Assembly: GCA_965233585.1 (NCBI GenBank)
Contig: CBDDTI010000231.1
Location: forward strand, 1 to 29,316
Reading direction: 5' to 3'
From: a bacterium
GTDB lineage: Bacteria > SAR324 > NAC60-12
Length of the DNA: 29,316 bases
The translations under genes and the position numbers were made by a program. The notes under the pieces are model-generated. The model ran no database searches, had not been told where the DNA came from, and worked only from the letters and a program-made list of their open reading frames with translations. Positions 16,947 to 20,198 of the stretch are shown here, in pieces. Every line of letters starts with the position of its first letter. Within the stretch, counting starts at the first letter, position 1.

Positions 16947-17150
16947 CACCTGGTTGACATATTGTCACCTGGGTGACATACTGCGGTCTATTGTAAATAC
17001 GCAAGATTAATTGCGTCTTAAATAGTTTCCTGTTTGCGCCAAAAACTTTTTTCCACCAATCAGATTCAAGAATTTATCTGTGGTTCCAAGAAAGTGAAGC
17101 CACCAGAATCGTATAAATAGCGCGAATTTTCATCTACTTTCATCACTTGG
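16947..17150 (+). promoter_or_regulatory. Internal RNA Pol II promoter
   Basis: Tandem CACCTGG(T/G)TGACATA (16947, 16966), CCAATCAG (17056), TATAAATA (17112-17119), Inr-like TTCATCACTT about 30 nt downstream, and first ATG at 17217 in GAGATGG context. Confidence 0.65.
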
Positions 17151-17216
17151 ATTCGCACTGCAGTTGCGAAAGGATTGCATTTAAAACTAACATTCCTACA
17201 ACATTCAAATAAGGAG

Positions 17217-17528
17217 ATGGCTGGATTTCTCCTTCCCTTAATAATGGACCTCGTGGGAGGAGGACTGGGTGGAATAGGAGGATCAATTGGAGGATCAACG
17301 TTTGGACCCGCGGAGCTGTCGTCATCAGCTCAGGATACGTCGGCGGACTCAAACGTTTTTAACACTCAAGGGCCTTCGGCTAATCACGGGTCGATTAGCT
17401 TTAATTTTCATGTTAATAATGAAAATTTTTCTACTCCGTTGGGAAACAGTCGAGGGGATCTTCTGGTCAACAGGCGGACGACTTACTTCAACAAAATGAG
17501 CTCCTCAGACGAATTATTGGTAAGATAG
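17217..17528 (+). CDS. Accessory segment A (103 aa if unshifted), hydrophobic Gly-rich N-terminus
   Basis: MAGFLLPLIMDLVGGGLGGIGGSIGG... Contains an in-frame A AAT TTT slippery heptamer at 17423-17429. Confidence 0.6.
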   Translation: MAGFLLPLIMDLVGGGLGGIGGSIGGSTFGPAELSSSAQDTSADSNVFNTQGPSANHGSISFNFHVNNENFSTPLGNSRGDLLVNRRTTYFNKMSSSDELLVR

Positions 17529-17936
17529 CTCCTAGTATCATACCAACTGGATCGAGGAGGAAGCGATCAATCCGGCCAAGAAGACCTTGGGTGAGGTGTT
17601 TTCGACCCTCACGACTTTGTCCACCGAGGCATTTTGGATTGCCTTACGTTGCACCTAAGCCTCTGGTTGACGGACCACCCTTGAGAAGATTTAATGCTAG
17701 TTCTCCTCTACTGATCAATCAACCGCCTATTCCTGTCCTCCGGGCGAAGCAAGCGTATGCAAAAAGGATTTCTGGACTTTTGGAAGAATATCATTTGGGC
17801 ATCTACAAAGAAGAAAAGAAGAACCCTCTTCCAAAGTCGTTTCAACTGGCGCTCTCGAAGTATTATGGATTGAAACCTCTTACGGACTCCCTTGAAAACG
17901 ACTCTAAGATTACACCTCAAATTGAAATCATTGAAG
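17423..17936 (+). CDS. Accessory segment B (-1 frame relative to A; no ATG)
   Basis: Open from 17423 (after TGA 17420-22): KFFYSVGKQ..DDLLQQNELLRRIIGK..SRRKR/SIRPRRPWVRC.. Ends at donor AG|GTAAAT (17937). Confidence 0.55.
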
Positions 17937-17996
17937 GTAAATAAAGAGCTCCTTTCTTCTGAAACTTTGGTATTTAGTTGTTGGTTTTCCTTTTAG

Positions 17997-18619
17997 ATGG
18001 AAAAAAGGTTCATAGTAGGAGAAAAAGGCAGACAAAAGGATTTATCATGCCTGTTCAAGCCGTGAAAGCCGTTATTGCTACGGCTCATTTGGACCAACTC
18101 CTCTATGACAAAATCATGCGTAACGCGGAGTATACGGATTCCAAGATCGTTAATGACTATCTGGATGATTTCTTCGCGATCAACCTGGCCAAGAGATTAC
18201 AACCTATGTTCGTACCACTTGACCATACGAAATTTCCGGAACAAATAGGCAAGGCGGTGTCGTTGGCAACTTTGAAGCTTACAACGGTGGCACGTTGCAG
18301 GATGCTTTACTCCACCTATCCCTGTGAGGATTTGTTGGTGGAGGACAAGAGGACGTGTGCTGCAGCTGGAATTTATACGTGTCACAGTCGTTCGTCACCA
18401 CCACCCGGATACGAGTATGGAACTTGGCGAGTGTACGATCAGTTGAAGGCCCAGGTTGCCGCCAACAGGATGTATCAGGCGGATAAGCATGAACCAACTC
18501 TGATTTTAGAAGAAAGGGAGCTGTCAAGGGAGAAGAGAGGTGCTTGGAAGGTGCCAAGGTATCGTCCCAGGAGGAAGAAACGTCCGTTTATGCGCAAATC
18601 GATCAAGATCGAAGAGTAG
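17997..18619 (+). CDS. Accessory segment C
   Basis: Follows acceptor TTTTCCTTTTAG (17996); removing a 60-nt intron joins B and C in frame. Contains RRKR/Q, a 4-Cys cluster and REKR/G. Confidence 0.6.
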
Positions 18620-18966
18620 TTCGTCCAGTCGTCGAACCAAACTTCAAGTCATGAAGACCTTGGGGGCGGGATCGAGTGTAGGTACGAGTTTGGGAGCAGG
18701 AAAGGTGCGTCCTGGAGCTGGGGCTGGAATGTTTAATACGCTCAGCATTCAGGACATGAGGAGGATGAATGCCGGACCACCAGCTTTGAGAAATCGTGCG
18801 GCAAATCCACATCCCATTACTGCCGCGGGAGTACATGTTGGTTACTCCTCTCCTGTCTCACTCACAAATTTACGCGCTCGATCATCTTCGTTGGATTCGG
18901 TTCGACAAAGTCCTACTCTGGTTCGATCTCCTTCATCATCTTCGATTTCGTTTCAAACGGCGCGAG
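18600..18966 (+). CDS. Accessory segment D (Ser/Arg/Gly-rich)
   Basis: RSRSKSSSSSRRTKLQVMKTLGAG...SSSSISFQTAR, ending at donor AG|GTAGGG (18967). How it joins to C is uncertain. Confidence 0.45.
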
Positions 18967-19010
18967 GTAGGGAAGCCTCTCAATCTTTACTCCTGTTGTT
19001 CCTCAACCAG

Positions 19011-20131
19011 TTTCTTCACTGGCTGCATCGTCGGCACCAAGATCTGGGTGGCATGATATGCCTCCTTTGGAGCCACCATATGCCTACTCACCAAGAGGGT
19101 ATCGACCTGTCCCGGCCAGAAGAAACCTCATCGGGGATCAAGCCTTAACTAGATCTAATTCTATTACCTCGTTGGACTCCAGCGTTAGTTCCAGCATGAC
19201 CGATTCAAGACCACCCACTCGTCTTACTAATGAACAGGGTTCTTTCTTGCCACAAGTTAGGGAGGACTTCAAAGTTCACAATCGGGTGGGAGATGCATAC
19301 CGGATTTATAAGGAAAAGCATCCTTATAAAGTCAAGGCTGGAAAATATGTTGGAGGGGGTATCGCGGCTCTTGGCTCCTACATTGCGGCCTCGCAAATCG
19401 ATAGGGCCATCCAACGCACTCAAGATAAGGCTGACGACAAGACCCATGAGAAGTATGCTAATGAGACAGCAGTTTTGGAGGCGGACCTTTTTAAGGAAAA
19501 ACTTGCAAATGAACGCTTTAAACAACAAAGCGAGTTTGCCTCCAAAGTTCTGTCTGACGCCATCTTGACGGGACAAATACCGACGGAATTGGTGAATCAT
19601 GTTGTGCCGAAGATGACAGTGCAAGAGCCAGTGAGGGAGGAACCGGGGACTTGGACGATGATCGACAGGACAGAAGACCCCTTGCGTCAACAAGATACGT
19701 CAAGAGGTCTCGCACCCAATGTAACAGAGTTGATTGTAGATCATGTCCAGCGGAATGAAAAACAGGTTGAGAAAATGTTAACTCGGAGAAAAGAGTTGAT
19801 ACTTCGAGAGGAAGAAGAGGAGATGCAACAGCCAAAACAAACACTTAGCGCCTTGGATCGTTTAAAGCAGCGAGAACACTTTCATTTTGAACTGCCGGAG
19901 CGAGAGAGAAGCCCGCGCGCTTTACCACATAACTGGGAAGAACCGGGGACACTGGAGTCGCACAAGAAAATTGTGTTGGCTTGGTGTGTGGGGTCTGCGA
20001 TTTTCGCAAGTACTCTTTGTTTTATCTCAGTAATGTGGTCAAAGTGCCGGTGCTGCTGCAGGAAACGGGTTAAAAAACCCACTCCTGTAGACGCTTCGGT
20101 AGAGCCACTTGAACTTGAACCGTTGAAATAA
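19011..20131 (+). CDS. Accessory segment E: coiled-coil-like region with C-terminal transmembrane helix and Cys cluster
   Basis: Acceptor CCTGTTGTTCCTCAACCAG (19010); hydrophobic YVGGGIAALGSYIAA; NETA and NVTE sequons; TM IVLAWCVGSAIFASTLCFISVMW followed by KCRCCCRKRVKK. Confidence 0.7.
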
Positions 20132-20198
20132 ACAATTCAAGGAAAAACATGAAAAGAATTATTTGTTCGTTTTCCTTATTTCTTTGTTTGATTGTTGT
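20127..20198 (+). terminator. Internal polyadenylation signal
   Basis: AATAAA (20127-20132) overlaps the segment E stop codon. A U/GU-rich tract follows at 20161-20198. Confidence 0.55.

Follow-up and report, generated by a model that had tools for sequence, protein, structure and literature searches.

A conserved fourth gene between pol and an F-type env of a BEL/Pao retroelement, probably intron-bearing and broken in the copy studied

Introduction

Belpaoviridae are described as elements with one to three genes and a length of 4.2-10 kb (PMC8742986), and the same range of sizes is given for BEL/Pao elements in another account (PMC3118150). In the present article, a BEL/Pao element is considered that has an additional gene between its pol and env. 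The element lies in a stretch of DNA of 29,316 nucleotides (nt), called the window below, which comprises positions 1 to 29,316 of the forward strand of contig CBDDTI010000231.1 from GenBank assembly GCA_965233585.1 (GTDB lineage Bacteria; SAR324; NAC60-12).

The closest described systems differ in what they share with this locus. Elements with long terminal repeats (LTRs) are reported to be able to capture open reading frames (ORFs) "between pol and env" (PMC6431247), and diverse extra ORFs are reported in LTR retrotransposons (PMC5408684, PMC7264820). Ogre and EVADE carry a functional intron, which remains in the genomic RNA and is spliced out of a sub-population of transcripts (PMC12786077). 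Envelope proteins of the F and gB types are widespread, the BEL/Pao element roo is reported to have an F-like Env (PMC13524379), and lokiretroviruses have an F-like Env as well (PMC7947760). Internal promoters have precedents in the internal promoter (IP) of foamy viruses, connected with tas/bet, and in Penv of the Oikopleura element Tor (PMC12789967, PMC4402516), and in errantivirus env mRNAs the leader begins at a splice acceptor (PMC12992720).

A first-pass annotation, made from the letters of the window, had described in positions 16947-20198 an accessory gene of about 3 kb consisting of five ORF pieces, named A to E here, which were thought to be joined by a -1 slip and three short introns. 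The interruptions between the pieces were regarded as more likely programmed than due to decay. The analysis reported below supports the gene itself and one of the introns, and leads to another view of the remaining interruptions.

Results

A conserved gene in the pol-env region

The element occupies positions 9620-22803 of the window, has a length of 13,184 bp and carries four genes. It is a BEL/Pao element (Belpaoviridae-type) by its Peptidase_A17, reverse transcriptase and integrase domains and by the DUF1759 domain of its gag. Judged from sequence, the region between its pol and F-type env is a conserved fourth gene of this BEL/Pao lineage, belonging to no recognised family; the extra gene of about 3 kb proposed in the first-pass annotation is borne out by the Pfam domains surrounding it and by the 41 relatives described below.

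The five ORF pieces were found where they had been drawn (Table 1). They are not a product of chance, because none of 2000 shuffles of 16947-20198 reached the observed values: the longest stop-free run has 386 codons and the five longest runs together 1119, and the shuffle maxima were 222 and 591, respectively. Codon-usage scores trained on gag, pol and env change frame along the region in the order 0, 2, 2, 0, 2.

Relatives of the gene amount to 41 distinct database proteins, all of them unnamed and none with a Pfam domain. An exhaustive HMMER scan with piece E gave 22 proteins, and word-indexed searches gave eight with pieces B and C, whose three stops were replaced by X for the read-through, 14 with P0025 as query and four with piece D. 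P0025 (671 amino acids, aa) is the closest sibling, in which 641 of 670 aligned residues are identical to the in-frame segments of the window. Taken segment by segment, the identities are 156/160, 122/131 and 363/379 (93-97%), and there are no stop codons inside the segments.

A tree was constructed from 16 rows, namely piece E of the window and 15 of the 41 relatives chosen for coverage, the 26 shorter fragments being left out. It consists of two groups, the split between which has support of 100/100, and the window is sister to P0025. The two groups are only 45-50% identical to each other, and conservation between them is blocky, from 0.19 to 0.80 identity per 30 residues, with motifs, Cys residues and N-glycosylation sequons retained.

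The statement of the first-pass annotation that no homolog could be recognised agrees with the results of family searches. A Pfam scan gave only MT0933_antitox (E = 0.0075) and Spp-24 (E = 0.0025), both under the cut-off, and no meaningful match was found in NCBIfam. Against PDB sequences, searched with profiles and pieces, the best match was adenylosuccinate synthetase (E = 0.0045 over 72 residues), judged to be chance, and two queries of the ESM Atlas gave no match. Two internal derivations were also considered and rejected. That the new protein is a diverged duplicate of the element's Env received an hhalign probability of 0.1%, and that the products of the two exons are paralogues, a probability of 0.4%.

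The GC content of 0.487 at 18000-20000, compared with 0.40-0.47 in gag, pol and env, could reflect either a protein rich in S, P, G and R or a separate origin of the gene. The latter leads to the idea of a host gene fragment that was captured by the element and is decaying neutrally inside it, an idea with which the presence of an intron, of promoter-like and poly(A)-like signals of its own and the lack of a match to any viral family would also agree. However, neutral decay fits poorly with blocky conservation over groups so distant from each other, in which motifs, Cys residues and sequons are kept, and with the intact long ORFs of several relatives. In our opinion, capture followed by decay is very unlikely.

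Three frame breaks private to this copy

The points at which the window changes its frame (Table 1) were placed by comparing all three frames with the siblings. At the first break, siblings match frame 0 through codon 17445-17447 and frame 2 from codon 17447-17449. At the second, they match frame 2 through codon 18593-18595 and frame 0 from codon 18597-18599, and at the third, P0025 matches frame 0 through codon 18987-18989 and frame 2 from codon 18992-18994.

The relatives run through these points without interruption. All five that cover the A-to-B junction (P0027-P0031, 57-89% identical, 220-235 aa) are one ORF, reading ...NENFSTPLGN[KQ]SKGSS... across it, and none is broken. Of the 41, 13 are continuous at the C-to-D junction, and four more, starting at a Met 19-22 residues downstream, are uninformative; at the D-to-E junction, 20 are continuous, none is broken, and one starts 15 residues downstream. 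Pieces C, D and E are read as one ORF in P0025, which has the same C-terminus, and in P0032 (740 aa).

Several relatives are interrupted at other places. Ten of them lose homology to P0025 at its positions 204, 346, 384, 404, 420, 442, 496, 504, 591 and 659, each then carrying 8-97 non-homologous residues, and two have unrelated heads before P0025 positions 228 and 480. In P0004, the head can be recognised as this gene read out of frame. None of these breaks is situated at the sites of the window, which correspond to P0025 positions 160 and 291. The frameshifted tail of the window was found in no database protein in a search with piece D, whose four matches from 465 candidates were all in-frame relatives. 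Because the relatives are continuous at the sites of the window and broken at scattered others, the three breaks are most likely private frame lesions, not programmed signals. From ATG 17217, the frame of the window closes at TAG 17526-17528 after 103 codons; as it reads, this copy is defective and should be able to make only about 103 residues.

In the first-pass annotation, the opposite was supposed: all four breaks, including the 60-nt spacer between pieces B and C, would be programmed, and a -1 slip at 17423 together with introns of 60, 70 and 44 nt would yield a product of 913 codons from this very copy. The heptamer AAATTTT at 17423-17429 is indeed in the X_XXY_YYZ register with frame A, GT and AG stand at every proposed intron end, the acceptor at 19010 scores well, and the LTRs are identical with gag, pol and env open. 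Nevertheless, homology to the siblings stays in frame A to 17447, eight codons beyond 17423, so that the real frame change is about 20 nt downstream of the heptamer, and all five covering relatives have no break to be overcome. The heptamer is as frequent in the window as expected by chance (28 found versus 26.5 expected), and the RNA fold of 17430-17529 (-18 kcal/mol versus a shuffle mean of -21.5, z = +1.15) has no excess structure. The slip was rejected on these grounds.

The 70-nt intron at 18559-18628 and the 44-nt intron at 18967-19010, proposed for the C-to-D and D-to-E junctions, were rejected too, since 13 and 20 relatives, respectively, retain coding residues within them and code straight through both. 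In a crude consensus scheme made for this analysis, by which all 663 GTs and 899 AGs of the element were ranked, donor 18559 was 49th or lower and acceptor 18628 about 402nd. One more candidate, an intron from the good donor TTG/GTAAGA at 17520 near the end of piece A (here and below, a slash marks the splice boundary), was discarded, as relatives are continuous there. Of the three GT-AG introns of the first-pass annotation, the dinucleotides are present at all ends, but the intron status does not hold for the two proposals at 18559-18628 and 18967-19010. With relatives either continuous or broken at scattered positions, the outcome that the first-pass annotation itself had named as refuting its view, a programmed origin of all the breaks is extremely improbable.

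The breaks might also be errors of assembly or sequencing in a copy that is really intact. Each of the three changes a single position within a short run, they separate stop-free segments that remain very close to P0025, and the copy looks young by its identical LTRs. Nonetheless, gag, pol and env, 8.3 kb in all, are free of such breaks in this copy, and the contexts are runs of 2-3 nt, not long homopolymers, which makes this explanation quite unlikely. The same distribution is also a point against lesions accumulated at random, for it is odd that in a young copy 2.9 kb should contain three breaks and 8.3 kb none, with a rough P of ~0.02 if breaks are random.

As had been noted in the first-pass annotation, the LTRs are essentially identical (349/349) and gag, pol and env are open, and because of this, the lesions most likely predate the present insertion. 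If they do, the lineage can transpose without the gene in cis, which suggests that it is dispensable in cis.

The 60-nt spacer as a probable intron

Conservation ends and begins again exactly at the borders of the spacer 17937-17996, and this spacer is very probably a spliceosomal intron, as was proposed earlier. Its donor, AAG/GTAAAT at 17937, is tied for the best of the 663 GTs of the element, and its acceptor, TTTTCCTTTTAG/ at 17996, has a rank of 10-25 among the 899 AGs. On the donor side, all five exon-1 ORFs end in ...IEI[IV]EGK followed by a stop, as in the window (GAA G/GTAAATAA), and conservation ceases precisely at the GT. It restarts at the AG, where all six boundary-crossing sequences read xTA-GAT, encoding L-D in the window, P0024, P0034, P0035 and P0037 and V-D in P0036. 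Both groups have kept the motif K[VI]L.R.KR, which follows the AG and comes before the first Met of piece C, and no ATG precedes it in the window or P0024. The ORF of P0024 reads through the spacer, tracking frame 0 and then frame 2 of the window, which implies a spacer of 61 nt versus 60 nt with a difference of one base in the T-run before the AG. Such a difference would alter the genomic frame relation of the exons and leave the spliced frame unchanged.

Several facts weigh against splicing. The splice sites of relatives were deduced from protein read-throughs; a search in which 7999 candidates of 369-1175 aa were scored gave no fused exon 1 + exon 2 protein, its longest match having 740 aa; in P0032, an unrelated head of 50 residues replaces the conserved beginning of exon 2; and three group-2 ORFs (P0034, P0035, P0037) start with MLD at the acceptor, so in these relatives, exon 2 could be translated independently. 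They bring up a scheme of two cistrons without splicing, in which AB (~240 aa) ends at TAA 17942 and CDE (~690 aa) starts from an internal Met, at 18047 in the window. It is in accordance with this scheme that both parts always appear in the database as separate ORFs and that the CDE ORFs of P0026, P0001, P0038 and P0041 begin at the Met equivalent to 18047. Yet this Met is absent from the three relatives starting with MLD, and K[VI]L.R.KR is conserved upstream of it without an ATG in the window or P0024. Moreover, CDE alone would be devoid of an N-terminal hydrophobic segment while having conserved Cys residues, sequons and a C-terminal anchor, and the GT and AG coincide exactly with the ends of conservation. 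Two independent cistrons are therefore considered unlikely.

Taken together, it is probable that the gene is real, that the three breaks are lesions and that the 60-nt spacer is an intron. The gene would then consist of two exons (17217-17936 and 17997-20131) joined over a 60-nt GT-AG intron of phase 1. By arithmetic, exon 1 (720 nt) and the coding part of exon 2 (2132 nt), with the three frame breaks allowed for, give about 951 codons, so that the earlier figure of 913-940 codons was too short, and an intact copy should encode about 950 residues.

A second intron seems to be present in one of the two groups, group 2. Ten of its ORFs extend to the residues GK (G/GTAAA-like), and each of them loses homology right after this point, five stopping within two residues and five continuing into unrelated tails of 5-35 residues. 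On the other side, unrelated heads of P0019 and P0013 run straight into the C-terminal exon, the head of P0013 ending in ...LIPSFVVQ. The GK point is read through in P0025, P0032, P0033, P0003, P0004 and piece E of the window, and the label of the second intron changes once on the tree. Since homology in group 2 ends after GK and the heads of P0019 and P0013 enter the C-terminal exon, introns may be a trait of the family.

Candidate expression signals

The motifs listed in the first-pass annotation are where it placed them (Table 1). Because 299 nt without any ATG precede ATG 17217 in an element with a mean of 19.3 ATG per kb, this stretch would mark a real mRNA leader. The leader could start in either of two ways, from a candidate promoter with TATAAATA at 17112 or at a candidate splice acceptor, a pyrimidine tract with CAG at 17063, used together with the strong donor at 10357. 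Correspondingly, CCAATCAG could be a CCAAT box or the pyrimidine tract and CAG of such an acceptor.

The near-perfect donor-like AAT/GTAAGT at 10357 is located just 5' of gag and may be the major donor used in the splicing of subgenomic RNAs. The leader 3' of the 5' LTR (10031-10060) contains CCAAT and TATATAAAT motifs, and no real similarity was found between this region and the region 5' of the gene that would point to promoter duplication. Before env, a TACTAAC branch-point-like motif at 20203, an acceptor-like TTAATTTTCCAG/G at 20289 and a short upstream ORF from ATG 20309 were noticed, because of which expression of env from a spliced RNA is suggested.

The AATAAA hexamer occurs four times on the plus strand of the element versus 7.8 expected, once within the intron and once at the stop codon of the gene. 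The latter is a difficulty for the gene model, as an efficient signal at 20127 would truncate genomic and env RNAs. The LTR at 9620-9968 has neither AATAAA nor ATTAAA, although TATAAG-type motifs occur, and so the poly(A) signal of the element itself may be non-canonical or located elsewhere.

Predicted protein product

The features of the product were scored on intact relatives, and hydropathy was calculated by the Kyte-Doolittle scale. The N-terminal run FLLPLIMDLV has a 10-residue hydropathy peak of 2.35. The sequon NEN[FL][ST] is present in 5/5 relatives and an N-x-T site with variable x in 12/13. Two Cys residues are conserved in exon 1 (5/5) and four in a domain of exon 2 (11/11). Three sites of the R-x-K-R type were found, the RRKR of exon 1 in 5/5 relatives, that at the start of exon 2 in 5/7 and the third in 12/12. 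The membrane anchor predicted in the first-pass annotation corresponds to a C-terminal span with a hydropathy of 2.36 (P0025 residues 619-642), after which 16-59 residues follow. The C-flank of the span has a net charge of +7 and the N-flank one of 0, and in five of the seven tail-bearing relatives the C-flank exceeds the N-flank in positive charge. This positive-inside pattern would put the basic Cys-rich tail in the cytosol.

By these features, the product would be, with a slight preference over other readings, a type I membrane glycoprotein precursor processed by furin. It would comprise the hydrophobic N-terminus, the sequons, the conserved Cys residues, three conserved furin-type R-x-K-R sites, a basic S/T/P-rich middle, a G/A-rich hydrophobic stretch before helical-looking blocks, one span and a basic, Cys-rich cytoplasmic tail. 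It may be proposed, tentatively, that this is a second surface glycoprotein beside the F-type fusogen, acting in attachment, egress or host interaction.

Some properties of the protein are at variance with a glycoprotein. The putative signal peptide is atypical, having no basic n-region and an Asp within the hydrophobic run. Motifs of cytosolic type are situated in the middle region, where PP[NS]Y was read by eye from the sequences and alignment in P0001, P0034, P0035, P0037 and P0040, and two R..S..SLDS repeats are conserved there. With the same gene structure, the product could be an adaptor tethered to the membrane and facing the cytosol, with many short linear motifs (of the PPxY type, phospho-Ser clusters and basic runs resembling nuclear-localisation signals). 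It would take part in budding or in manipulating the host, as the small accessory proteins of complex retroviruses do. The composition of the middle 245 residues (33% S/T/P and 16% K/R, with conserved short motifs) would suit an adaptor, as would the atypical N-terminus and PP[NS]Y, and the R-x-K-R runs could be nuclear-localisation signals. On the other hand, the sequons are kept though their middle residue varies, all four Cys of the exon-2 domain are kept in 11/11 relatives, and the positive-inside pattern leaves to the cytosol the Cys-rich tail past the span. In our opinion, an adaptor is a doubtful alternative to the glycoprotein precursor.

The host element and its surroundings

The Pfam matches of the element are DUF1759 in gag (E = 1.6e-08) and, in pol, Peptidase_A17 (7.3e-39), DUF5641 (2.8e-23), Integrase_H2C2 (3.1e-06) and RVT_1 (2.5e-04), the last of them under the gathering score. 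The peptidase is of the Pao type, and the domains follow the family order PR-RT-(RH)-IN. As is usual for BEL/Pao, the element is flanked by LTRs, two of 349 nt, 100% identical. With four genes and 13,184 bp, it exceeds the range of 1-3 genes and 4.2-10 kb described by the ICTV, a range that is descriptive and not a rule of membership. The hydropathy profile of Env includes a signal-like N-terminus, a fusion-peptide-like hydrophobic stretch (residue 155) and, at residue 559, a membrane span. Gag and pol share one frame with a single TAG between them at 12706-12708 (aat agt TAG gaa att), which would be either a site of stop-codon readthrough or a nonsense change.

A truncated older copy at 7425-9619, consisting of an LTR, a leader and the first ~1.35 kb of gag, adjoins the full copy, and the 5' LTR of the full copy is fused directly to the gag of the truncated one. 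The two copies are 98.4% identical, with 34 differences in 2189 nt. In gag, the truncated copy has a nonsense change at the equivalent of 11098 and 12 synonymous and six non-synonymous differences. The 5' LTR of the full copy is without the first ~7 nt (CTGTCAA) found in the other two LTR copies (9613-9625 versus 22448-22460), and no clear target-site duplication was found around the LTR array. Because of the shortened 5' LTR and the lack of a clear duplication, the array looks like a rearrangement and not a simple insertion.

Positions 6509-7427, immediately 5' of the truncated copy, are occupied by a tandem repeat of 258 nt (3.6 copies, 87% matches). Inverted repeats were found at 941-1716 and 4191-4985 (84% identical) and at 25847-26179 and 27519-27851 (91%), the first pair bearing 20-nt minisatellite arrays; both pairs are probably other mobile elements. 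Flanking ORFs (588-6563 and 23228-23533) have no Pfam domain, and only the truncated gag was matched among them. When the window was scanned for Rfam families, tRNAs and tandem repeats, nothing came up in the pol-env region.

Table 1. Positions, in the window, of the LTRs, genes, gene pieces, frame breaks and candidate signals of the BEL/Pao element.
Feature	Position	Strand or frame	Basis or remarks
5' LTR	9620-9968	+	self-BLAST: 349/349 identical to 22455-22803
gag	open frame 10456-12708, first ATG 10462 (read from translation)	+	Pfam DUF1759
pol	12709-16884	+	Pfam Peptidase_A17, RVT_1, Integrase_H2C2, DUF5641
ATG-free leader (candidate)	16920-17216	+	299 nt; no ATG between 16917 and 17217 versus 19.3 ATG per kb in the element
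CCAATCAG	17056-17063	+	once in the element, 0.17 expected
TATAAATA	17112-17119	+	once in the element, 0.59 expected
Piece A	17121-17528	frame 0	stop-free
Exon 1 (pieces A+B), proposed	17217-17936	+	starts at ATG 17217; ends in phase 1 at ...GAA G/GT; 720 nt
Exon 1, protein features	17217-17936	+	N-terminal hydrophobic stretch, N-x-S/T sites, two conserved Cys, RRKR 17556-17567
Piece B	17423-17944	frame 2	stop-free
Frame break 1 (frame 0 to 2)	17445-17449	+	three-frame comparison with siblings
Probable GT-AG intron	17937-17996	+	60 nt, GTAAAT...TTTTCCTTTTAG; three in-frame stops inside
Piece C	17978-18619	frame 2	stop-free
Exon 2 (pieces C+D+E), proposed	17997-20131	+	stop TAA 20129-20131; coding 2132 nt
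Exon 2, protein features, N-part		+	RRKR 18017-18028; four-Cys domain; REKR 18536-18547; basic S/T/P-rich middle
Piece D	18510-19148	frame 0	stop-free
Frame break 2 (frame 2 to 0)	18593-18599	+	three-frame comparison with siblings
Piece E	18971-20131	frame 2	stop-free
Frame break 3 (frame 0 to 2)	18987-18994	+	three-frame comparison with P0025; inside the proposed 44-nt intron
Exon 2, protein features, C-part		+	G/A-rich hydrophobic stretch ~19346-19393; helical-looking blocks; membrane span 19970-20038
Exon 2, C-terminus		+	basic Cys-rich tail, conserved ELEPLK (ELEPL[KN] in relatives)
AATAAA + T/GT-rich stretch	20127-20132, ~20165-20200	+	overlaps stop codon; candidate poly(A) site
env, F-type	20406-22277 (ATG 20406)	+	Pfam Baculo_F, E = 2.1e-14
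3' LTR	22455-22803	+	self-BLAST versus 5' LTR

Comparison with known systems

In the literature searched, no BEL/Pao element carrying a further gene in the pol-env interval was found; Repbase-type libraries and subscription journals, lying outside the search, may already catalogue the family. The gene family is apparently new and undescribed, in a known kind of element. BEL/Pao elements are described as simple, with gag, pol and sometimes env, and a conserved intron-bearing gene of ~950 codons would add a fourth gene class to them. The insertion appears young and has intact gag, pol and env but a dead fourth gene, which suggests that transposition within the genome can proceed without it.

Like the additional ORFs of other LTR elements, such as ORF3s of bdelloid rotifers and additional ORFs of plants, the gene is a sense-strand ORF placed 3' of pol and within the LTRs; such ORFs often lack an assigned function and sometimes have membrane spans (PMC5408684, PMC7264820, PMC6431247). 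It differs from them in its BEL/Pao host, its length of ~950 codons, the F-type env alongside and the apparent intron. By Pfam, the only means used for this comparison, the gene could not be linked in sequence to the GDSL, DEDDy or Env families of those papers.

The neighbouring env belongs to the Baculo_F family, as in errantivirus, roo and baculovirus systems. The new protein itself resembles viral surface glycoproteins in its furin-type sites, sequons, C-terminal anchor and Cys-rich tail, and such a layout makes this unannotated family a candidate for the entry of the element into cells or its exit from them. By sequence, no relation to a known fusogen or attachment protein was found, as Pfam, NCBIfam and PDB chains gave no match and neither did the Env of the element (hhalign). 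Attachment proteins of paramyxoviruses are of type II, and the new protein, unlike them, looks to be of type I. By analogy with G/HN and F of paramyxoviruses, one may imagine a "complex" BEL/Pao element with two glycoproteins, in which a furin-processed type I glycoprotein with an S/T/P-rich middle, made from a spliced and separately promoted gene, serves as an attachment or regulatory subunit of the F-type fusogen; this broader scheme is rather unlikely in our estimation. Were it true, retention of the intron would choose between genomic RNA and mRNA, and copies like the present one, still transposing after loss of the gene, would mark the point at which an infectious way of life gave place to one confined to the genome.

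Similarity to the foamy virus IP and to Penv of Tor consists in a candidate CCAAT box (17056), TATAAATA (17112) and an ATG-free leader in the spacer between pol and the gene. Those promoters were mapped by rapid amplification of cDNA ends and reporter assays, whereas the present candidates are motifs alone. Splicing of accessory genes is characteristic of complex retroviruses, where it is of the tat/rev type. Ogre and EVADE are, like this element, intron-bearing LTR elements. They belong to Ty3/gypsy and Ty1/copia of plants, and their introns separate gag and pol or regulate their expression, whereas the 60-nt intron proposed here would split the accessory coding sequence of an animal-type BEL/Pao element. 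An intron-bearing gene of this kind would give an animal counterpart to Ogre and EVADE of plants.

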